A stretch of DNA of 64,000 bases from positions 12,484,478-12,548,477 of the forward strand of contig JARDVH010000097.1 of assembly GCA_030324005.1 (NCBI GenBank). Direction: 5' to 3'. The DNA comes from Negaprion brevirostris. Taxonomy: Eukaryota. Position numbers and translations under genes: made by a program. This document shows positions 3,401 to 63,900 of the stretch, in pieces (the first letter of the stretch is position 1; each line of letters starts with the position of its first letter). The notes under the pieces were generated by a model. The model was given only the letters and a program-made list of their open reading frames with translations. It was not told the origin of the DNA and searched no databases.

Positions 3401-5184
3401 TGAATGCAGTGTCCAGCAGCTGTACACTGTGTGTTACTGATACATAGGATTGTATCGGAGTTGAGGATGCACCCTCTAGATTAATGGGCTTGCCAGATCC
3501 CGGGGGACAGGGTGCTAGACACAGGGCAGTGTCTGAGACCCAGGGCAGTGTGCCAGATCCAGCTGATGCACTGGCAGAAGTCCCTGCTGCAGGTCTATGT
3601 CCCGTGTCTCTGTCTTCCCCATCCAGCTGGTGTCTGCCACATGAGTGGGCAGCCAATCACTGGGAGTGTCTGCTTTCTTCGTGATATACTCTCTCGCACG
3701 GTCACTGTAAAGTCGATTCAACTTCAACTTCGCAGTTAGTCGCTGGCGAACACAGGAAGTTTGAGATATCACATGATTTAATTGCTTCCCTCCTCCCTGA
3801 CCTGGCAATGCAGTGACCCTTGTGTTTGTTGATGGCGCATCATTGGGTGAAACTCCTGGTGTCAGGGCGCAGCTGTCAAAAGGCGCTGCTTTATGTTTTA
3901 CTTTCCCTGTCCGCTCTTTTTCTAAAGCAAATTTCTCAAATGGCAATATTTCTGTGCAGCTGATTAATTTATAACATAAGTCTTACGATTGTATGTTTTA
4001 ATGATCACTCTTCAGTAAATTTCTATCAAAGTAATCCATTGTATTGAAAACGTGGTGGCTAATTTCAGGATAACCGCAGAACCGTAGACAAGTTGTCACT
4101 CTTGGGTAGAGTGAGTTGCCACCATTCTGATTGGTTTAATGATTTCAATGTAATCTGATTTATGCTTAAAGTGCTCCACATTTTTGCAGAAGTTTGAATT
4201 TTTCAGGGCTCTGTTGTAAATGCTCCTCTAGCAATAACGAATTGTCCTTCTCTGAGGATAATGGTGTATGGAGTGATTGAAGAGATTGAATTCTCAGTGT
4301 CCGCCTCTTGTAGTGAACATTGTGTTCTCATTTAACATCTTGCTTTTGCATGTATAGTCACATTAACTTTTCCCAATATAATTCTTTGAATACTGCTCCA
4401 AAGAGACACATTACCAAAGCTTTTTGTCTTTCACTCATCAGGACAAACACAAGAATACCAAGTTCTAAGCAGTCACACAGCTGAAAAGGGTGTTGATTGG
4501 TTGGCAGATTGACTCTGGCTGATGCAGCATGTTTTTTTGAGCTGATAGCAGCATTCTGTTGGTGGTAAATGCCATTCACATGGCCATTGCTGAGATGATT
4601 GGTTTCCAACAACCATGACCATCTTCCTTTGTGCTAGACATGACTCCAAGCAATAGGGAGTTCCCCCTGATTCACATTGACCTCAAATTTTCTTTGGCGT
4701 CCCTTGATGTCATACTTGCTCACATGCTGCCTTGATGGCATGGACAGTCACTCTCGCCTTACCTCTGCAATTCAATTCCTTCATCCGTGTTTGGACCGAG
4801 GCTGTAATGAGGCCTGGAGCCAAGTAACCCTGGCAGAACACAACCTGAGCACAACAGTGAGTTGCTGTGTAGGTGCTGTTTGATAGTTCTGTCAACAATA
4901 CTTCTATCACTTTGGTTGAGAGTGGACTGATGATAATTGAACTGGAGTCTGTTTGGTCCATTTCAACTGGTCAGTTTTAAGTCAAAAATAAACTGGTTGG
5001 ATTTATTTTGCTTTATATGGACAAATGTACCTGGATAATTTTCCATGTTGACACATGTTGTCGCCCTACTGGAAAAGGTTAGCTAAAGGTCCAGTTAGTT
5101 CTGTAATACAAGTCTGCAATGCTAAACCACGATGCCATAGGTGCCCATGGCCTTTACTATGAGAAAGTTCTGATCAGAACTTTC

Positions 5185-5317
5185 CACTTGCCTGATGAAG
5201 GAACAGCGTTTCCGAAAGCTTGTGGGTTTACTATCAAATAACCTGGTTGGACTTTAACGTGGTGTTGTGAGACTTCCTACTGTGTTTACCCCAGTCCAAC
5301 GCCGGCATCTCCGCATC
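5185..5317 (+). mobile_element. Penelope-like terminal repeat with hammerhead-like core
   Basis: CTGATGA-AGGAAC-AGC-GTTTCC-GAAA-GCTT followed by the family tail GTTGGACTTTAACGTGGTGTTGTGAGACTT...CCCCAGTCCAACGCCGGCATCTCC. Confidence 0.65.
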
Positions 5318-5967
5318 TGGTATGATGTTGACAGCAGTGTGTCACACTTACAAAGACCAGTTTCTGTTATAAGTGTGAACACGAGTGTTTTACATTGGAA
5401 CACGTTTGCAGGTTTTCAGTTTATTAATGTCAGCAGTTGATTTCAACATCAATTGAAAACACAGCTGACTGATCTCAGGGAAAACTGAATTACCCAAGGT
5501 TTCTGGAAATGTAAAGGATGTGAGGAATATTTTACATTGCGGCCCCAGCCGTAATTACAACAATAAACCACGTGCTGGTTTTGGCAGCATCATATTGAAA
5601 ACCAGGGTAACGTTGTGCTTTGGTATGTTTTTATTTTAATCACTATGTAGCTGACATTAATATCTGCTGCTTTTTGGCAGATTTTTCAAATATTAGGCAC
5701 TATAAAGATTTAATGTGAATGTATCACCAACAACCTAGTTGCTTCTCACAATTGATCAAAAATACCTGTAAAGTTGAAGTTGTAGTTATTGTAGACCGTG
5801 AATAGTATTTTATACAGAGTGAATGTGTTAAATGGGGCAAACTGATAAAATTTTATACGTTTGGGGAATTCTTTATGTAAAACAAAGAGCCAGAACTTCT
5901 GAGGACTGATGATCCCAATTGGTTTGCCATTCTGCTCTGGAGTCGGAGGGCGGGGTGGGGGTCATTT

Positions 5968-8359: not shown

Positions 8360-8670
8360 GGGTGGCACAGTGGTTAGCACTGCTGCCTCTTGGTGCAAGG
8401 GACATGGGTTCAATTCCCAGGTTGAGTCACTGTCTGTGCGGAGTTTACACATTGTCCCTGTGTCCCTGTGGGTTTCCTCCAGGTGCTCCGGTTTCCTACC
8501 ATAGTCCAAAAATGTGTGGGTTAGGTGGATTGGCCATGCTGAATTGTGTTAGGGGGACCAGCTAGGGTAAATGCATAGGGTTATGGGAATGGGCCTGGAT
8601 GGAATTGTGGTTAGTGCAGACTCGATGGGCTGAATAGCCTCCTTCTGCATTGTAGGATTCTATGATTCTT
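8360..8670 (+). mobile_element. HE1/V-SINE-like SINE, tail type A (CR1-like)
   Basis: Full head, central domain, tail GATGGGCTGAATAGCCTCCTTCTGCATTGTAGGATTCTATGATTC. Confidence 0.85.
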
Positions 8671-10800: not shown

Positions 10801-10957
10801 AAAAATTTGTAACGAATATCTACATTAAACAAGTGCATTCTCTGAATTGTATGACAAGCAAATGCCCAAAATTTGAAAACGTCACACAATCCAAATTACT
10901 CATGATTTCTGAAAATTGTTAGCCACAAATTAATATCTAATATTTGTATTGGAGAGT

Positions 10958-11106
10958 TTTATTTGGAATTGCAAGCTTTCGGAGCACTTCTCATTCATCA
11001 GGTGAGTCACTCGGGCGATTGCAAATAAACCTGTTGGACTTTAACCTGGTGTTGTGAGACTTCTTACTCTGCCCCACCCCAGTCCAATGCTGGCATTGCC
11101 ACGTCA
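10958..11106. mobile_element. Fold-back Penelope-like element with hammerhead-like core on the - strand (10971-11004)
   Basis: Reverse complement reads CACCTGATGAATGAGAAGTGCTCCGAAAGCTT. The + strand family tail AAATAAACCTGTTGGACTTTAACCTGGTGTTGTGAGACTTCTTAC follows. Confidence 0.65.
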
Positions 11107-11767
11107 CTTGTATTGATACCACCTGAAATCACAATCTAATGTCCTAAATGTTGAACCTGGTACAGGTTTGATGGTGTGGTTCCTGAAGTAGAAATTTATT
11201 TTGCAGTGAAATACATTTTCTAGCTTCCTATCAGGAGAGACCTTCCTTTGATCAGACATTTAGTACCAAGAGATTCTCAATATACCAAATGAATGAGTTG
11301 AAGATATATAAACAGAAACATCTGTTCACCTGTAGCAGCCAAATCGAGCACCACTCCAAACGATGGTGCGAATGGCTTGCCCATCGTCCCACGTGGACCA
11401 ACTAGCTTGGGTAGACACATTCCCCTTCCTGGTCTGCGCAGGCTAACCATCCAAAACTGATCCAATTTTCCACCAGCTGGTAAGTTGTGTCAGGGAGCAC
11501 AGATAAATTGCAATTAATTGGATTGTTTTCTTTGGGTCCGGAAGAAACTCTATCTGTCTTTCATCAAAACATGCTGAAGCCAACCTGTGGCCCTTAACAT
11601 TGGTATTGGTACCTGAATTGGAAATAAAGATGCTAATATTCCTCATTCCTTGAATGCAAAAGTAAATCATTAAAATAAAACTTATTGTAAATTGCATAGA
11701 AGCTAAAAAAAAATTGGACAAATGTTCAAATGTCAGTAGGATCGTAGAATCCCTTCTGAACGGTGCA

Positions 11768-12083
11768 TGGGGGCACAGTGGTTCGTACAGCTGTCTCACA
11801 GCTCTAGGGATCCAGGTTCGATTCCTGGCTTGGGTCGCTGTGTGGAGTTTGCACATTTTCCCTGTGTCCATGTGGGTTTCCAGCAGGTGCTGTAGTTTCT
11901 TCCCACAGTCCAAAGATGTGCAGGCTACATTGATAGGTCTTGCTAAATTTGCCCTTAATGTCAGGGGGACTAACTAGAGCAAATGCGTCGGGTTATGGGG
12001 ATGGGCCCTGACTGAGATTGTAGCTGATGCAGACTCAATGGGCCAAATGGCCTCCTTTTGCACTGGAGGATTCTGTGATTCTA
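11768..12083 (+). mobile_element. HE1/V-SINE-like SINE, type A
   Basis: Same family. It interrupts an older - strand SINE tail (11743-11760 / 12084-12255). Confidence 0.8.
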
Positions 12084-12588
12084 TAAGAGCCATTCGACCC
12101 TTTGAGTCTGCACTCTGATGGAGTATCTTACCTAGGTCCTCTCCCCAGCCCTATCCCCACATTATTACCATGGCTTATCCATTTAGTCTATACATCTTAG
12201 GTCACTAAGGAGCAGTTTAGCATGGCTAGTCCATCTAACCTGCACATGTTTGGACATAATCCAACATTTAATTCTATGGGCAGGAATTTCTGTTGCTCCA
12301 ACTATTTTTGAGGATGGCACATTTTGGAGTCTTGGGCCCACCAGTAGCATTTTTTTCCTCTTTTTAAGTGTGTTTCCTTTCCTTTCCAGCCACACTAACG
12401 CTGTTGCCAGATTTCACCTAGGCCTTTTCTGCCTTCTGATTCCAATTTCTTTGCTGCATTACCTTCTGTCCGGATACAATGGAATCTATCTGCAGGTGNN
12501 NNNNNNNNNNNNNNNNNNNNNNNNNNNNNNNNNNNNNNNNNNNNNNNNNNNNNNNNNNNNNNNNNNNNNNNNNNNNNNNNNNNNNNNN

Positions 12589-12618
12589 CTCTCTGTCTCT
12601 CTCTCTCTCTCTCTCTCT
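12589..12618 (+). repeat. (CT)n microsatellite adjoining N gap
   Basis: ctctctgtctctctctctctctctctctct. Confidence 0.85.
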
Positions 12619-13667
12619 GTTCACTCTCAAACTCCTTGCTCCTCGCTTCTTCTAAACAAACTGCCCAGCCTTGTGTTTGGTTTCTTTCAGTTTCCTTTTC
12701 ATTATTGCTTGTCCCTACGATCACATTGTACGTTTTCCCAGTGGGATCTTTTTCACTGCCCCCGTGTTATGACTGTTTCCCAAGTTCTCTTATAGTTGGT
12801 CTAATTTTCTCAGTTTGTATGCGCTTCGTAGCGGACCTCAGCTGAAAATACTGAGTAAGGTTCCGTGTGAATACTGATCACGTGCAGATTGAACTCTTTA
12901 ATTGTCTGCTTTTGCATTCCTCATCAACTGACTAATTGATATCAAGTCTTGGATGAGTCAAAATCTCCTCTAGTTCAATCTGGGTAAACTGCAGTGTGCT
13001 ATATGTATGTATATAATGCATGTTGGGGTTTGGGGTGTGGACTGCCCTTTTAAGATTGTGGGTCAGGTGATTGCTGGGCAATTAGCTCCTCCCAGTTTGG
13101 GACCTGGTTGGACAGTCTGAGATCTGACTGGAACAGTGGACACCTGTTCAAATTACAAAGCCGATCTTGTAGTTCTTTATGCACACTTAGCCCATAGCGG
13201 CGCACACATAATATGAAGTCACTTTCTTCTTTTGACCTACACCAGCCTCTCCGTCGATGTTAACTTCCATCAGTCTTCCTGATCACCCTCATAGGCTAAG
13301 TTTAATGGTGGGAATTTTTCGCAGGTTGCTTGATCCAGAGTTACGTTTCCTCCCTGCGTTCATTCTGAACTGCCATCCACCATCAAAGGACTGCTCACCG
13401 TCCAGCCACCTCTTCTCCCGCAACTGCCAAGATTTTAATGCATTTCTTAAGACTTGATGTCTGTGATCCCCAAGCTGGCCTCGCTGCTTTCACCCTCCAT
13501 CATCATTTGCAAATTATTCAAAATGTTGCTTCTCGTATGCTGATTGTTAAAATTTCTATCGAAGGCCGTGTGGGTTGCTGGCATGCTAGCATTTGTTACT
13601 CTTGGCCGATTGCCTTCAAGGAAGTGATTGTGGGTTACCGTCTAGAATCGCTGCAGTCTAAAGCCCT

Positions 13668-13925
13668 GGGTGGCACAGTGGTTAGCACTGCCTCCCCGCA
13701 GGGACCTGAATTCGATTCACTGTCTGTGTGGCGTCTGCATGTTCTCCCCGAGTCTGTGTGGGTTTCCTTCGAGTGCTCTGGTTTCCTCCCAAAAGACGTG
13801 CTGGTTAGGTGTACTGGCCGTGCTAAATTCTTCCTCCATGTAGCTGAACAGACGCTGGAGTGTGGCGACTAGGGGATTTTCACAGTAATTTCACTGCAGT
13901 GTTAACGTAAGCCTACTTGTAAGTA
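13668..13925 (+). mobile_element. HE1/V-SINE-like SINE, type B
   Basis: GGTGGCACAGTGGTTAGCACTG head and type B tail. Confidence 0.8.
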
Positions 13926-14974
13926 AATGATTTCCAAACTGGATTTTTGATCAAACTCTACTCTTCCTAGTGACACTAAGAATCCGTTTCAAGTTCTCAG
14001 CTTTACTGTCACTGGAATTGTTGAGCACCCCACTTTAACAATCTCTTCCAGCCTGTTCCTTGTTCCACTATCCCTGTTTCATCACCAGTTGCAGCTCTTG
14101 CAGCCATTCTACCTCCACCCTCTGGAACTTGCTTCCAAAATCTTCCCTGTCAACCATCAAAACATGTTCTCTTAAGCTCTTCTGGCTCATTCCAGTCTAC
14201 CTGCTCTTCCATTTCCCTCCACCCATTGTCCTTCTCCACTCTCCTGTGATGGCTTTGTCATGCAGAATAATCTATAAATGCAAGTTGTACCTTGCCCCAG
14301 GAAGGAATTGCTTTAAAAATTGACCTATTCAACAAGACTGGATCATATCTCCTGGGCGTTTCACCTCAGTGCTGAATACGGTTAATCAAGATGATTTTTG
14401 AATGTACTATTTGGACTGACAGTGAAGCAGAATTGGATTGAGTTAAAATATTCTGGATTGATTCTTCATTGTCAGTCTTGCTGGAGTCAGGACACCTATG
14501 GTTTTGAGACATGTTAATATTTCTTCCCTTTGAGTCATTGCCCACTTGTTATGCAGGACTTTCAAGTGGGCTGCAGACTTCTTAAACAGACCAAGAGTGT
14601 TACGGTCTGCCACAGTAACTACCACTGCTTTCTTACGAAAAATATGGACATCTGTCAAAGGTGCTGCATTATTATAGTGCAATGATGTTCAGATGTCTTG
14701 GGGAATTCAATAGAATCCCTTCAATGCAGAAGAGCACCAACTTTCTCACCCAGGTCCACTTCCCTGCTTTATCCCTGTAACCCTGCACATTTACCGTGGC
14801 TAATCCATTTAACCTGTACATCTTGGGCCACTAAGGAGCAACTTAGTACGGAGTCCATCTAACCTGCACATCTTCGGATGTAATCCAACGTTTAATTCTT
14901 TGGAGATGCAAGAGAGAGAGAGCTGTAAGCCAAGCTGTGCGAGTTTTGATGAGAAAGGATAGAATTGCATTAAA

Positions 14975-15385
14975 AGATGTAGTTACAAAGTTCACTTAAC
15001 TGATTGGGATGCTGGGGTTGTCTTAAAAGAAAATGTTTGACGCACATCGAGCCTAAATCCATTGGAGTTTAAAAGAATGAGAGGCGATCTCATTGAAACA
15101 TACAAGATCCTGAGGGGACGTGGTAGGGGGAATGCTGAAAGAACGTTTTCCCTTGTGGGAGAGACTAGAACCAGGGTCAGAGTTTAAAAGTAAAGGTGTC
15201 TCCCATTTAAGATGGAGAGATTTTCTTTTCTCTGAGGACCGTTATTTGGTGGAACTCTCTTCCCCAGAGAGCACTAGAAGCTGGGTCATTGAATATATTT
15301 AAGGGTGATTTAGGTAGATTCTTGACAGACAAGAGTCAGTAGGTATAGCGGGTAGGCAGGAAACTCGAGGCCACCATCAGATCAA
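14975..15385 (+). mobile_element. CR1-like LINE 3' fragment
   Basis: Degenerate RRMRGDLIETYKILRG...FP...TRG signature. Confidence 0.7.
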
Positions 15386-15389
15386 TAAA

Positions 15390-15667
15390 TCATCAAATCC
15401 CTCTCGTGTAGAAGGAAGCTGTTCAGTCCATCAAGTCTGCGCTGACCACAATCCCACCCAGGCCCTAGCCCCGTAACCCTTTGCGTTTACCCTGCCAATC
15501 CCCCTGACATGAAGGGGCAATTAACCCACACATCTTTGGACTGTGGGAATAAACTGGAGAAAACCCATGCAGACACAAGGAGAACTCCACACAGACAGTG
15601 ATCCGAGGCTGGAATTGAACCCAGGTCCCTGGTGTAGAGAGGCAGTAGTGCTGACCACTGTGCCACC
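15390..15667 (-). mobile_element. HE1/V-SINE-like SINE, type A
   Basis: Ends ACCACTGTGCCACC, the reverse complement of the head. Confidence 0.8.
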
Positions 15668-16275
15668 CAGGTAGATTAGCCATCACCTTACCAAATGATG
15701 GACAAGGCTCAATGGCCTATCCCTACTAATTCATGTGTTGATGAATTTTTAGTATGTAAACTTTACTGCAGTAAATACTGGTGAAGCTGAGAGTGGAACA
15801 GACTGAAATAAAATACAGCGGCAAAGGAATGACCTTGGCTGCAAAATAGGGTCCGACAAGGCTCATCTAGATCAGCAATCTAGGTAGTTGTTGGTGCACG
15901 CTAGTTCCAATTAAGTGACCTGGATAAACAACCCGAGCAGAAACGTCCGATATGATAATACACACCTTGTTCAGAGATAATCCCATCATTTTATTCAAGT
16001 CAATGAGCTGTGCACCTAAGAGCAATTCACTGATTTTTTTTTTCTCTCTCTCACATGTTCGCTGCCAACATTTCTTTCTGGTAAATGATTGCTGTGTGGC
16101 TCTGCCAGCGCTATCAGATATAACTAACCTTTGTAACATTGGGGTGGAGAGCGCGGTTGTATTGCTGCTTCTTTGTAGATGGGTGATTTTTAAAAAGTGG
16201 AGTACAGCAAAATGCAATGTAAACGAGCCTTGCTTATGTAAGTTAGCCTGACGAGAATGTTTTGACCTCCTACAG

Positions 16276-16306
16276 GCGTGAAGAAAACCAGAGGCGGCAA
16301 AAAAAT
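16276..16306 (+). CDS. LMO7: LMO7 internal micro-exon (31 nt), end of CH domain: (x)REENQRRQKN
   Basis: ctcctacAG acceptor and GTAAGT donor. Translation resembles the recalled LMO7 segment QEETDRRVKN. Phase 2->0 fits the next exon. Confidence 0.8.
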
Positions 16307-30845: not shown

Positions 30846-31093
30846 AAATATCCATCACNNNNNNNNNNCAGTGTGATTTTTAATGTGGCCGTTCCCCTAG
30901 CAACCTTGGTGCTTAGATTACAAACGTCTGAAACTTTGGCTTTGAATGTATCGATAATCCATCAGGGCTTTTGATCAGTGACAGAATCCTAAAATCATAG
31001 TTACCACACCCTCCCCAACACCAAATTTAATGAGCTGGGAGTAAAGGAGAGAAATCATGTCTGATCTATTTGTCTGACCTACCTTGCTGAAAG

Positions 31094-31165
31094 CACAGTG
31101 AGGAGGGTTCACAACATCAGGTTAAAGTACTACAGGTTTATTTTGAATCACAGACTTTAGAGCAC
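31094..31165 (-). mobile_element. Penelope-like terminal-repeat fragment running into an N gap
   Basis: CACAACATCAGGTTAAAGTACTACAGGTTTATTTTG resembles the reverse complement of the family tail. Confidence 0.5.
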
Positions 31166-31265
31166 NNNNNNNNNNNNNNNNNNNNNNNNNNNNNNNNNNN
31201 NNNNNNNNNNNNNNNNNNNNNNNNNNNNNNNNNNNNNNNNNNNNNNNNNNNNNNNNNNNNNNNNN

Positions 31266-38031: not shown

Positions 38032-38348
38032 ATGGTGGCACAGTGGTTAGCACTGCTGCCTCACAGCGCCAGGGACCCAGGTTCAATTCCCGGCTTGGGT
38101 CACAGTCTGTGTGGAGTTTGCACATTCTTGCCGTGTCTGTGTGGGTTTCCTCCGTGTGCTCCAGTTTCCCCCCCACAGTCCAAAGATTTTACGGGTTAGG
38201 TGGATTGGCCATGCTAAATCGCCCTTTAGAATGTCAGAGGAACCAGCTAGAGTAAATATTTGGGGATAGGGCCTGGGTGGGACTGGTGTCGGTGCAGACT
38301 TGATGGGTCAAATGGCCTCTTTCTGCACTGTAGGATTCTATGATTCTA
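38032..38348 (+). mobile_element. HE1/V-SINE-like SINE, type A (well preserved)
   Basis: GGTGGCACAGTGGTTAGCACTGCTGCCTCACAGCGCCAGGGACCCAGGTTCAATTCCCGG head through GGATTCTATGATTCTA tail. Confidence 0.88.
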
Positions 38349-55255: not shown

Positions 55256-55768
55256 ATTATAATGCCAGAATAAACTGAATCACTCTTTTAAATAGAATTT
55301 GCAGTCCAGAAATGGTCCAGTTGATCTATGCTGTGAATCATACATCCCTACTTCATCCAACCCTTTTGGCATTTGTATTCCTTTACTTGCCTGACTTCTC
55401 CTCTAATGTTATTCTATTCAGCTGCTCCCTGTACTAATTTCCACATTCTAGCCACTCCCTGTGTCAGAGATTCTTGGGTACCAGCAACCTTAGACAAACT
55501 TGGTCGACTCTTAATACAAACAGCACAAGACACCATGCATCCAATGCAAAATTTTTAACTAGCTGTACACAAGGAGAACTAACTCCCCCACGGTCCCCAC
55601 CATCCCCACCCTCCACCAATAAAATTGGCTGGCGTGGTTCTGACTTCACAGAAAAACAACTCCTCAATTATAATCAATTACCACAAATCAGGAGCAAGCA
55701 TTTTGTTCACACCATTCATTGAGGTACACATTTGCCAATTAAATCCTGGCTTTTCACGCTTTAGTAGT

Positions 55769-55901
55769 CATGATGTGGATATGCCGGCGTTGGACTGGGG
55801 TAAACACAGTGAAAAGTCTGACAACACCAGATAATAATAATAATTTATATTATCAAATAAATCGGTTGGACTAAAACCTGGTGTTGTCAGACTTTTTACT
55901 G
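55769..55901. mobile_element. Fold-back Penelope-like element with centre replaced by AT-rich filler
   Basis: GCCGGCGTTGGACTGGGGTAAACACAGTGAAAAGTCTGACAACACCAG ... CCTGGTGTTGTCAGACTTTTTACTG. Confidence 0.6.
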
Positions 55902-56654
55902 TTTTCACCCTTTCCCATTTGATGAAAAATTGGCTTCTACTAATCCTTCATTTGCGTAGCGTATCCCCATATCTCACCTTTGGTATTTGTTATGGAAAAA
56001 TCCAGTCTTGCCCACCTTCCAGTGAAGGTCAAAAATCAGAATGTTATGTGGCCTCTGCAAGTGAAGGACTATCCTGAAAGCAGACAGTCTCCCTTGAAGG
56101 TCTGCAACTGATAACATTCTCACAAGCTGTTACAGAGAAGGCATGATTTTTAAGATCTGAGCATTTCAAATTCCACACCTGGGTAAAGAAGTTAAAAGCC
56201 CTTTTTATTTAAATAAATCTCATTTAGTCATTAGACAGGTGGCATAAGTAGTCAGTAATGGCAAACCTGAAGTTTATATTGAGATATTTAGGACGCAAAT
56301 ATAATTGGCCTTCCACACAATGTTTTGCTCAATGCATTATTTTTGTCTGTTGTGGTGAGCATTGTACTGAGAGTCTGCTTTACCTTATGGCGCCCTTCAT
56401 TTTATTGCAACCTCTTTGCTAAAGAAGCTTGAGGACATCCCAATGATGTGATATGAGTGTACATAAATAAAAGCAACATCTTCTGTTTTCATGCTCTGTT
56501 TTAGTCCACCCCGCTCCCCCTCACGCATGCTCGCTCTCCAAGAACGTGGAGCAATTCCAACTTTCCAATCACCAGCCCCTTAATTAACATTTAAACCTGT
56601 TACGGATTTTAAACTGAATTTGATGCCAAGACAATTGCATGAAAATGAGAAGAG

Positions 56655-58607: not shown

Positions 58608-58662
58608 ATTGACAGATCTGAAGGAGACCAGGAGAAATTGTTGGAGGATCCAAAGCCAAAAG
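58608..58662 (+). CDS. LMO7: LMO7 small exon IDRSEGDQEKLLEDPKPK
   Basis: ttccacAG acceptor and GTAAAC donor. Phase 0->1 is consistent with both neighbours. Confidence 0.65.
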
Positions 58663-59006: not shown

Positions 59007-59211
59007 ATGGAGATGCCGGCATTGGACTTGGGTAAACACAGTAAGAAGTCTCACAATACCAGGTTAAAGTCCAACAGGTTTATTTGTAGCAAACACCACT
59101 AGCTTTTGGAACTGGCTGTTCCTTCATTGAACTCCCACCCACCTGATGAAGGAACAGCCAATTCTGAAAGCTAGTAGCATTTGCTACAAATAAACCTGCT
59201 GGACTTCTTAC
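59007..59211. mobile_element. Fold-back Penelope-like element with hammerhead-like cores in both arms
   Basis: Inverted arms around CTCCCACC. The + arm reads CACCTGATGAAGGAACAGCCAATTCTGAAAGCTAGTAG (59140-59177); the mirror arm at 59096-59130 is degenerate. Confidence 0.7.
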
Positions 59212-59585: not shown

Positions 59586-61789
59586 TGCTGCCCAATCTAT
59601 TGGGTACGCAATTGGGCCAATTAAAGTATCAATTGTGGCACTCTTCACACGGCATCTGCATTTTCCAGAAGTAGCTGGAGTCTGTGGATGGAATGTTGGA
59701 GGACTTCCTGAGGTGGAGTGGGGGGAGAGTGGTGGTGGGTGCTGAATGCCAGAGATGGATCCTGCAGAGCGATTCGACATGGATCCACAGGGCTGAGAGG
59801 GTGTCAGCTGAGGCCATGTTCCATCCAGCATCTCCTCTCTATTGATGGCTTGGTAGTGTCCTTGGTGTAATTAGCAAGTCTTCAGAAGGTAGCTCCACCC
59901 TGATAAGTCCTCATGGTTCAACAGATACACAGCCCCGGTGGGGCTGCTGGTCACCAAGAACCATTCCCACAGGCTCACTTAAGTTGCTGAACCCATCTGT
60001 CATCCTTGATTGGACAGAGCTCCCAGAGGCAGACTGGTAATGGGTGGCAAATCTCAGAAGTCTCCTCCAGGGCCCTGCTACCCCTGAAATCCCAACCTGG
60101 AACATAGCTCCATGTCAGGATAAGGATCTTGGAGTTAAAATTCAGTGTAATATCTATGGTCCAAGTTTGAGAAACACATGTACTGAGTAAAATACTGATT
60201 TATTCAACTTGCATAAGGTAATTATAATTACTTCAACATGAAGTGCATCCAAGAGTCAAACCAGCTGTGTTCTTCACCTTGGCTCAGATCTGATGTGTAA
60301 TTATGAAGAGTCATTTAGCAATTAGCATAATAGCTGTGGNNNNNNNNNNNNNNNNNNNNNNNNNNNNNNNNNNNNNNNNNNNNNNNNNNNNNNNNNNNNN
60401 NNNNNNNNNNNNNNNNNNNNNNNNNNNNNNNNNNNNNNNNNNNNNNNNNNNNNNNNNNNNNNNNNNNNNNNNNNNNNNNNNNNNNNNNNNNNNNNNNNNN
60501 NNNNNNNNNNNNNNNNNNNNNNNNNNNNNNNNNNNNNNNNNNNNNNNNAAAGTGGAGTTGAGGTCCCAAACTAGCCATTGTTTTACCGAATGGCAAAGAA
60601 AGCTCAAGTGGCCCTACTGTCAATTCGCCCTCCTATTTTTTAATATTATCCCCCTTTCTTCTCCTCCTACATTCTCTCTCTCTCTATCTCCCTTCCTCCA
60701 CCAAAGAAAATAATTGGCAATTTTAACATGATAAAGGAGCCCTCACCAGTTAGGTAGTTAGAATAGCATCCCTTAAGATCACTATGTGAATAGACCCTTC
60801 AATACAAGCACCAAATATTAAGCACCACATTATGGTGATACTGGAGCCACCCGCAGGTAATTGCATCCTTTGAGGAGGTCATATATATACTGGTAGATTC
60901 TAAAAAAAACTGTACATTTTGTAACCACAGCATGAATTTGCCCTGACACAGCTAAACTCACACTGCACAGTACATTATAGGATTTCCTTCCTGTATATAA
61001 AACCATACAGCTATTTCATTACTTAACACATTTTTAAAATCAGCTTCAATTTCCTTTTATTGTAAATTTATGCATAATGTGCTGATTATTGCTTGATATT
61101 CCATCTGGGGGTTGAATAGTATAGTCCTTTAAAATGCAGTTCTATTTCTGGTCACGTACAATCCATCGTATAAAGAGCCCTGTGGATTGTTATCGCTTAA
61201 TTATCTAACATGCAAGTAGGGCACCATTGTATAATCTGAGAATATGATTCAAAATTGGACCCCCATCTCCATAAATGCTTTTTCCCCACTTGGGATAACA
61301 ACAGAAATGTTGCCCTCTCTCACTTGTAAGGACTCAAGATTCCACATGTGTGGTCCAAACAGATGTGGGTAAAATCTCAGCTGGGAATAGTACTGATGCG
61401 GGGGTGCGTTGGGTCAAGGCACTTGAAGCAATCTTCAAATGCATTTCAAAAGCGGTTCTGCCATTGAATGACAAAAGGCAGTCACAACAATTCTCACAAA
61501 CATCAAACGTAGTACTGTGTGATTTAGAGGGAATAGGCAATCGCAGCCTGTGCTCCTGTTGTCATGTAATTTTAAGGTCATTCCCAGATTAAATTTTGTG
61601 CAGTGTAGACTGTTAGCTTTCTCTCTTTGATCTCTGTCTGCAGTTGCAGGGGAGATTGAACTGAAGTGATGGCTGATTCGCTACAAGTGGAGGGTGCTGG
61701 AAATGGCTAAAATTGAAAGGAAACACTGCAAGTGCACAAAAATTAGGTTTTTTACTGAACCAGACTGCAATTTCGAAAATGAACTACTC

Positions 61790-62825: not shown

Positions 62826-63258
62826 CTCGATTTGGGCCATAGTATCGCAGGGTTGGCGCATTTATCTTTCAAAGCTTGAAGGCAAATTTCTGTCTTCATC
62901 AAATCTGAACCACCCAGTCTTTCTGATTTAACATCCTGAGTGGATCAGTCAGGTTAGCCAAGCTCGAGACGTACCTCTCACAATATTTAACTATGACAAA
63001 GGAACAGCTTTTGCAGTTCATTTTTGCGTGTAATCGTTCCAAATTTTCATGAGCTTGTCAGTGGAGATTCCTCCTAATTCAGCATCTGATCCAGCATGGC
63101 ACCCTCAACAGCGGGTCTGTATATTTGGGAACTAGATGAGCAGGAGTGAGGATCCTCAATCAATCCTCACTGAGACACGCTGAGTGTAAACCAGGAATGT
63201 TTAAAAAAAAAGGAGAATAAATAATGGTGAGCTCTGTTGGCCTTGCTGCTGCTGCTGT

Positions 63259-63350
63259 GACTCACCTGATGAAGGAGCAGCGCTCTGAAAGTTCGTGAAA
63301 CCAAATAGACCTGTTGGACTTTAACTTGGTGTTATGAGACTTCTTATTAT
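63259..63350 (+). mobile_element. Penelope-like terminal repeat with intact-looking minimal hammerhead
   Basis: CAC-CTGATGA-A-GGAGC-AGC-GCTCT-GAAA-GT-TC-GTG followed by the family tail. Confidence 0.7.
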
Positions 63351-63843
63351 TGCTGCAGCTATTTCAATGAACCCTGGGCCATTGTGTTCCCACTTTAATT
63401 GCACTGTCTTAAAATTATGCAAGTTTAATGAACTCTTATACTTTCAGAGCTGTAAGTGTGAACATTTGGTAGAACAAATCACTTTGAGGTTGTTTATTTG
63501 CATCAGGAAATAATACATTCCTGGAAGGCTGTAATCCTATCCATTTGTGAGACTTAACCACAACAAAGTATTCTTGGAATACAGATGAACGCTTCAAGTA
63601 ACTGCTTATAGAATTTGGTGCAACTGCTTGCCATCAGCGTGATTAAGGCTCTTGTGAAATGAAAAAGCCAGCAACTAACTGCATGCAGTTTACCAGAATG
63701 AAGTTACTCCATGGCGTTATCCAAGTTGTGGTTATAATGATTGTAATTTTGTCTGGCAATGTTCGTACGTGCACTTGCAATTCTTTGTTTTGCGGCTGAG
63801 GTTAACTTGATAGTTAATGCGTTTTGTATTGTTTTTGCTTTAG

Positions 63844-63900
63844 CATCTGAGCCCCTTAGCCTGAGAAACTTTAAAAGACGGTCCCAGTTTTTTGAGCAAG
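63844..63900 (+). CDS. LMO7: LMO7 exon (A)SEPLSLRNFKRRSQFFEQ(G)
   Basis: T-rich tract with ttAG acceptor and GTAAAA donor. Resembles recalled ASESISLKNLKRRSQFFEQG. Confidence 0.92.

Follow-up and report, generated by a model that had tools for sequence, protein, structure and literature searches.

The insertion at 63254–63349 on the forward strand of the window, the 64,000-nt (64-kb) stretch of Negaprion brevirostris DNA analysed here, is probably (probability about 0.75) a short copy, dead on arrival, of the terminal repeat of a Penelope-like element (PLE), comprising pLTR and tail. It would have been made by the reverse transcriptase (RT) of that PLE from uncut RNA and is now decaying without a likely effect on LMO7, the gene in which it lies. 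The insertion (copy A) carries a minimal type I hammerhead at 63262–63298 (+), identified by its geometry, a descriptor match and the published consensus, and is one of seven loci of the same repeat family in the window.

Read from the sequence, both core boxes of the hammerhead are present. Helix I has 4 bp, UCAC at 63262–63265 pairing with GUGA at 63295–63298; the sequence-only reading had given a CAC/GUG stem, of which the pairing stands and the length of three does not. The C3-A9 box occupies 63266–63272, A63273 is unpaired (bulged) between A9 and helix II, and helix II is formed by GGAGC at 63274–63278 and GCUCU at 63282–63286 (5 bp) with the loop AGC. The first helix II pair (10.1-11.1) is G63274·U63286, and G12-A15.1 is found at 63287–63290. 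The stretch 63290–63293 reads AGUU, where the family majority is AGCU, and U16.1 is followed by C17 at 63294, with the cut predicted after C63294. The core boxes, the five-pair stem II, the UH site and the predicted cleavage position all agree with what had been described before; the G·U as first pair of stem II is a small correction. The hammerhead is the minimum-energy fold of a 51-nt focal fragment. With all 13 core positions and both helices intact (constrained fold −8.1 kcal/mol), the focal copy is the best-preserved monomer within the 64-kb window.

The loose pattern CUGAUGA..GAAA was matched six times in the window against 1.79 expected, and since six matches were reached in 3 of 100 shuffles, this pattern is weak when taken alone. 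Two of the six (35224 and 47118) lie outside the repeat family. A strict hammerhead descriptor requiring a helix I of at least 3 bp, a helix II of at least 4 bp and UH, a check that had been proposed and was run, gave two matches (5192 and 63266), with a mean of 0.02 and a maximum of one in 100 shuffles; the cores at 59143 and 11001 fail it. A profile of the repeat found 11 arms at seven loci with E≤1.6e-10, the next match in the window having E=0.26, and so reproduced the seven copies counted earlier. The recurrence of the core was confirmed at 5192 (+), 59143 (+) and 11001–10977 (−), and all three read GAAAGCT as had been stated, so that the AGCU palindrome (15.2-16.2) is present in three of four cores, the focal copy having AGUU.

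C3-A9, G12-A15.1, U16.1 and H17 are intact in all four forward cores and damaged in two partial arms. Over the four copies, 30 of 36 cells of the helices pair, against 19–55% in slid controls. Changes of G-C to A-U in helix II and of U-A to C-G in helix I covary and separate two subfamilies. The covariation that had been noted in stem II is thus present, but its score was reached by 89 of 500 shuffles with these four sequences and does not rise above chance. At 10.1-11.1 the focal copy and the copy at 59 kb have G·U, whereas copy B has G-C and copy D has U/C. No hammerhead family was among the 14 Rfam matches at E≤10 in the window; matches to miRNA families at 55792–55915 and 2542–2696 are fold-back copies of the repeat and score far below the gathering thresholds. 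The hammerhead was not recovered by unconstrained RNAalifold and six fragments had fold z-scores in an ordinary range (−1.60 to 0.89), both of which are expected for so small a motif.

Copy A consists of the hammerhead and a short-ended tail, 96 nt between target-site duplications (TSDs). The left TSD (63243–63253) lies in a (TGC)n run and matches the right one (63350–63360) in 10 of 11 positions (null fraction 0.011); the mismatched position 63357 reads T in sequencing runs X6 and X7, giving 11/11. The target run extends over 63243–63256, with one extra TGC in runs X2 and X6. The tail (63299–63348, about 54 nt) has the short end of the family, without the optional extension of about 40 nt.

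Copy B (5184–5320, +) has an AGCU core, a bulged helix II of the GGAAC subfamily, a weak helix I and the full long tail; no TSD was found for it, and a perfect 22-nt palindrome is present at its 5′ junction (5163–5184). It is the sole core followed by a full same-sense tail of about 100 nt. The claim that each core is attached to a common tail of about 90–120 nt therefore holds for this 5.2-kb copy and not for the other cores, the long tails of the 59-kb and 11-kb copies being on inverted arms upstream.

Copy C (59009–59206, both strands) is a head-to-head pair. Its inverted arm (59131–59009) has a long tail, begins within the first core box and has lost G12, and its forward arm (59136–59206) has the core at 59143 and a short tail with an internal deletion. 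The deletion (59190–59206) sits between two GACTT repeats, suggesting microhomology-mediated loss. No TSD was found for this copy, which folds as one hairpin of −96.6 kcal/mol. Copy D (10953–11098, both strands) joins a core on the reverse strand (11001–10977), with helices I and II broken, head-to-head to a long-tailed arm (11015–11098), and has an 8-bp TSD (10944–10951/11108–11115); its core-bearing arm ends after about 20 nt of tail.

The profile also revealed two core-less fold-back pairs, each with one short and one long end: copy E (2562–2704, both strands), with a 13-bp TSD containing two mismatches (2550–2562/2705–2717), and copy G (55763–55901, both strands), with a 12-bp TSD containing one (55751–55762/55902–55913). 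The long arm of G runs about 10 nt beyond the other long ends (55763–55775, − strand); an ATG located 9 nt before the end of this arm is a candidate start codon for the ORF of the parent element. Copy F (31080–31165, −) has a damaged GAAA box and a short-ended tail, and its 5′ part runs into a gap. There are 13 N runs in the window (e.g. 31166–31265 and 60340–60548), of which one adjoins F and masks its 5′ end.

TSDs of 8–13 bp were thus found at four of six testable loci (null fractions 0.011, 0.011, 0.003 and 0.047), with boundaries placed by eye and F left out for its N gap. The two loci lacking a TSD and the placement by eye weigh against the PLE reading. Head-to-head inverted pairs occur at four of seven loci. 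The 3′ ends form two clusters separated by about 40 nt, with five long-ended arms (B, C inverted, D inverted, E forward and G inverted) and five short-ended ones (A, C forward, E inverted, F and G forward); the forward arm of D ends earlier. Each inverted pair has one long end only. All four core-bearing forward arms start within about 12 nt upstream of helix I and therefore extend across the cut site, which is what an uncut RNA template would give. The inverted arm of D (11015–11021) and the forward arm of E (2616–2625) begin a few bases from the predicted cut site.

All seven loci in the window are single copies or inverted pairs, with no tandem arrays, and the tail has no poly(A) or simple-repeat end. 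An 8-bp stem can be formed by the tail in four long-ended arms, where RNAalifold picked another pairing. No partial-tandem pLTR-ORF-pLTR unit was found, the 4.1 kb between C and A containing SINEs and no RT or endonuclease match; such absence is what stubs would show. C and A belong to different subfamilies and have SINEs between them, and a reading of the two as the pLTR pair of a single element was therefore rejected.

Four public sequencing runs were examined over 62950–63700, with 11,741 to 16,168 contigs per run. Depth was concentrated at about 63257–63350; run X1 had 4e5 on the core, 1.7e6 on the tail and 6.6 in the flank, ratios that give an order of magnitude only and no copy number. 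With more than 11,000 contigs in each run, the repeat family is very abundant. Contigs from the flanks enter the element from the left in X2, X6 and X7 and from the right in X6 and X7, with 8–15 differing letters per 250–390 nt of flank, and no joint skipping the focal element was found in the runs examined; the focal insertion is therefore old and shared. In X2, X6 and X7 the orthologous core letters at the focal site are masked by paralogous depth. Of 18 joints 15 were listed, and since 14 of these connect opposite strands inside the element, fold-back copies must be frequent across the genome. The runs also contain a few joints of tandem-like type.

The biggest piles of 3′ loose ends (63344–63350) run on as the optional extension of the tail. 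The biggest 5′ piles are at 63260–63262 in all four runs, among 24 of 583 rows listed. A pile at this position is expected because the reference itself starts there, and what carries information is how poorly the letters further upstream agree (0.35–0.37). A weak shared signal of about 15 nt is readable upstream in all four runs, so some copies extend further. A 5′ pile this sharp, beyond which little sequence is shared, is more readily explained by a discrete short template than by random truncation. Core-less and inverted arms begin at varied starts (63289–63318). There was no 5′ pile at the cut site, 63295, among the 24 of 583 rows listed; six of the 14 opposite-strand joints map to 63300–63301, and mismatches to the reference could mask starts at 63295. 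These joints and the arm starts of D and E near the cut site are a possible footprint of cleavage. Position 63292 is C in 89–93% of the depth, which makes AGCU the palindrome of the family and the focal AGUU, with U there, a deviation. At 63286 (position 11.1), C accounts for only 39–51% of the depth.

Minimal hammerheads (min-HHRs) are present in the pLTRs of metazoan PLEs and also occur by the thousand as solitary motifs associated with truncated PLEs (Cervera & De la Pena 2014, PMC4209133). The shark motif shares with the min-HHRs presented there the CUGANGA-H box, a helix II starting with G, GAAA, the palindromic 15.2-16.2, UH, a short helix I and an AU-rich 3′ flank, as well as the bulged base after A9, a helix I of 2–5 bp and a helix II of at least 4 bp. 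By eye, the turtle sequence aligned there shares the helix III G/C pair, followed by CCAAAUAAA. The published entries have a Watson-Crick palindrome, whereas the focal shark copy has G·U there. Published min-HHRs are mostly solitary, spread genome-wide and sometimes in opposite-strand pairs, like the shark family. No shark is among the 40 species aligned in PMC4209133.

Endonuclease-positive PLEs are described with an adjacent inverted 5′-truncated copy and an optional tail of 30–40 bp at one end (Craig et al. 2021, PMC8557442). Head-to-head pairs and TSDs of 8–10 bp are reported for PLEs, and palindromes of 18 and 38 bp for the 5′ ends of rotifer pLTRs (Arkhipova et al. 2013, PMC3846280). The head-to-head arm, the optional tail of about 40 nt, the TSDs of 8–13 bp and the palindrome at one 5′ junction are shared with these units, but the shark copies are only 90–200 nt long and non-coding.

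In the Poseidon element PAc of Anolis carolinensis, reverse transcription starts at two internal sites, 111–118 nt past the start of helix II; PAc uses uncut RNA, and its hammerhead cleaves only with protein present (Frangieh et al. 2024, PMC11167929). The shark family shares the two 3′ ends bounding the tail, and its long end is, by eye, about 115–120 nt from the start of helix II. The PAc ORF starts at helix II, whereas the ATG in the focal core box closes after nine codons, so any parent ORF must start elsewhere.

Pfam searches gave no relevant RT or GIY-YIG match for 150 of 151 ORFs of at least 48 aa near the copies, and for 52 of the 105 ORFs of at least 90 aa in the window DUF4757 (LMO7) was the only meaningful domain. 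None of seven peptide candidates from the tail had a match at E≤10, and four tail-peptide matches were set aside as unrelated repetitive proteins; searches with the peptide around the ATG of G gave nothing. Pattern scans for the repeat gave no matches in viral, metagenome or GTDB contigs; one viral 18-mer match (L001) was dismissed as chance, aligning over about 38 nt only and without the core. Since no RT or GIY-YIG gene is linked to the repeat, we infer PLE membership from the motif and the insertion anatomy. As to the Penelope-related family proposed by the sequence-only reading, the hammerhead consensus, the dispersal and the PLE-type anatomy speak for it and the RT/GIY-YIG link was not found among the window ORFs scanned.

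Judging from PLE biochemistry, the GIY-YIG nuclease would nick the target and the RT would prime inside the RNA at either of the two tail sites, giving short or long ends. The cDNA would end shortly upstream of the hammerhead, either because a copy begun at the 3′ repeat was truncated early or because synthesis ran off the start of a transcript beginning there, and the inverted arm may be added by fold-back or template switch. In the parent element, activity of the hammerhead would depend either on dimer formation via the AGCU palindrome or on help from the element's protein. Solitary intronic copies would be fossils that decay neutrally after insertion.

The proposal of a non-autonomous, ribozyme-bearing family stands as far as a dispersed, retrotransposed family is concerned; a separate non-autonomous master is not needed, since copies of the end of an autonomous PLE, truncated or produced by run-off, account for the data. 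We regard as unlikely a self-standing, hammerhead-headed mini-element of about 95–135 nt, resembling a retrozyme monomer or a SINE, with its own masters and PLE protein acting in trans. It would account for the start of the forward arms just upstream of helix I in all four core-bearing copies, and for the pile of 5′ loose ends at 63260–63262 with low-agreement sequence upstream. Non-autonomous PLE derivatives are known (PMC8557442), pLTRs are able to act in trans (PMC3846280), and the non-LTR vertebrate retrozymes described by Li, Clavereau & Pollet (2026, bioRxiv 10.64898/2026.07.22.740005) are likewise non-coding, pLTR-related and dispersed as monomers with a type I hammerhead. Non-LTR retrozymes are, however, tandem units by definition when active, each unit with a hammerhead, whereas the copies in the window are single or inverted. 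The variable ends are of PLE style, with two 3′ ends and varied starts of core-less and inverted arms, and the upstream signal of about 15 nt in four runs indicates that some copies are longer. Run-off from the 5′ repeat of an autonomous PLE would make an equally sharp edge.

There is very little chance that the family is of another repeat class, such as a LINE or SINE end or a MITE-like fold-back DNA element, with an incidental likeness to the hammerhead. This would fit the missing link to a PLE ORF, the covariation that is not significant with four sequences, the Rfam search without a hammerhead match at E≤10, and the fold-back pairs with TSDs, which resemble MITEs. On the other hand, the descriptor matches are 100-fold above chance and every element of the PLE min-HHR consensus is matched at the family level. 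The fold-back arms differ from terminal inverted repeats in their asymmetry, their variable centres and their unequal ends, and the tail has no poly(A) or simple-repeat end. The PLE terminal-repeat copy remains the preferred reading.

The intronic position in LMO7 on the + strand, proposed earlier, was borne out by exon matches to shark LMO7. Exons were found on the + strand from about 16277 to 63900, the longest matching LMO7 of Mustelus asterias at 93% and that of other elasmobranchs at 63–79%, so that a carcharhiniform shark is the likely host. The exon upstream of copies C and A lies at 58608–58662 (about aa 1346–1367 of Mustelus LMO7) and the exon downstream of the focal copy at 63844–63900 (about aa 1367–1389), both bordered by AG/GT as judged by eye. 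A short exon at 16277 to about 16306 (+, about aa 107–116) was missed by the default search. Copies A and C, the latter 4.1 kb upstream of A, are thus in one intron (about 58662 to about 63844), and the copies at 31 kb and 55.8 kb lie in LMO7 introns too. Those at 2.6, 5.2 and 11 kb are upstream of the first LMO7 exon found and are presumably intronic, since LMO7 residues 1–106 are absent from the window. About 24 copies (14 +, 10 −) of a SINE-like repeat of about 310 bp and 68–86% identity are scattered in the window (e.g. 38033–38345, 8361–8667 and 11768–12080), putatively a tRNA-derived shark SINE of HE1 type.

The fold-back copies C, E, G and D would give long double-stranded hairpins in the LMO7 pre-mRNA. 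Should the family act on host RNA in any way, this would more likely be through editing or hairpin processing than through cleavage. The majority tail carries AATAAA (e.g. 59189–59194 and 11023–11028); in several arms it has the sense orientation of LMO7 and might act as an intronic poly(A) signal. In the focal copy AATAAA (63303–63308) is lost through G63308, where 98% of the depth has A.

The hammerheads in the window look like decaying fossils. Whether cores are better conserved than their flanks was checked on the window copies, and no sign of it was seen: among copies found through their tail, mismatches numbered 3 of 62 in the core and 29 of 394 in the tail (p=0.60, a test of low power on a small number of sites). 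Four of six window arms have an altered C11.1-G12 CpG. The focal hammerhead is nevertheless not clearly dead, because its core and helices are intact and G10.1·U11.1 is natural in PLE hammerheads, including the S. mansoni(1) entry of PMC4209133; as published PLE entries share this G·U, it need not be disqualifying.

We consider it highly improbable that the focal copy, acting alone, with the 59-kb copy or with other transcripts in trans, retains self-cleavage and modulates the splicing of LMO7 or its mRNA yield. Besides the intact core, both helices and the sense orientation, runs X2, X6 and X7 retain the insertion at this site. Two sense cores are present in one intron, with a spacing like the 2.1–3.4 kb between pLTR hammerheads (PMC4209133), and domesticated intronic hammerheads exist (PMC6155905). 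Yet the focal palindrome is lost, the 4-nt self-duplex of AGUU having +3.8 kcal/mol against −2.5 for AGCU, and helix III between copies A and C is worth only −0.2 kcal/mol. The focal fold has a probability of 0.13 in isolation, which drops to at most 0.04 when 60 nt of flank are added on either side and to 0.00 with 150 nt, and the 59-kb core is buried in the hairpin with its own inverted arm (helix II probability at most 0.01). Metazoan min-HHR monomers are reported not to cleave and their dimers to have low activity (PMC4209133); of nine frog hammerhead dimers one cleaved (bioRxiv 10.64898/2026.07.22.740005). With seven loci per 64 kb, moreover, the repeat is not specific to LMO7.

From the modelled folds and these published assays, the family is predicted not to cut host RNA efficiently and an effect of cleavage on LMO7 appears unlikely. 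The earlier suggestion that the copies could affect the pre-mRNA is weakly contradicted by the tail-like decay of the cores, the lost palindrome, the low fold probability in context and the inactivity of published monomers. It would be a long shot that a mini-element of about 95–135 nt was copied some 100,000 times from transcripts starting just above the ribozyme, and that its best sense intronic copies, such as that in LMO7, still cut pre-mRNA when helix III pairs with the RNA of another copy or when an element protein folds them. If this were true, shark introns would be a genome-wide field of conditional ribozymes.

The intronic hammerheads of amniotes in RECK, CTCL and DTNB (PMC6155905) are also of type I and in sense orientation, but they are single-copy, canonical and conserved, whereas those of the shark are minimal, very high-copy and decaying. 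The shark family is undescribed in the literature searched and in the 2014 supplement (PMC4209133), Repbase and Dfam lying outside this search; the survey of retrozymes and PLEs in bioRxiv 10.64898/2026.07.22.740005 covered one chondrichthyan. What is new is a very abundant family in a shark host, the class of min-HHRs at PLE ends being known since 2014. Its tens of thousands of short copies are a fossil record in which the start and stop sites of reverse transcription can be mapped, and 5′ ends on or off the ribozyme cut site bear on the role of PLE hammerheads in vivo. The family would be relevant to gene regulation only if intronic copies cleave host pre-mRNA.
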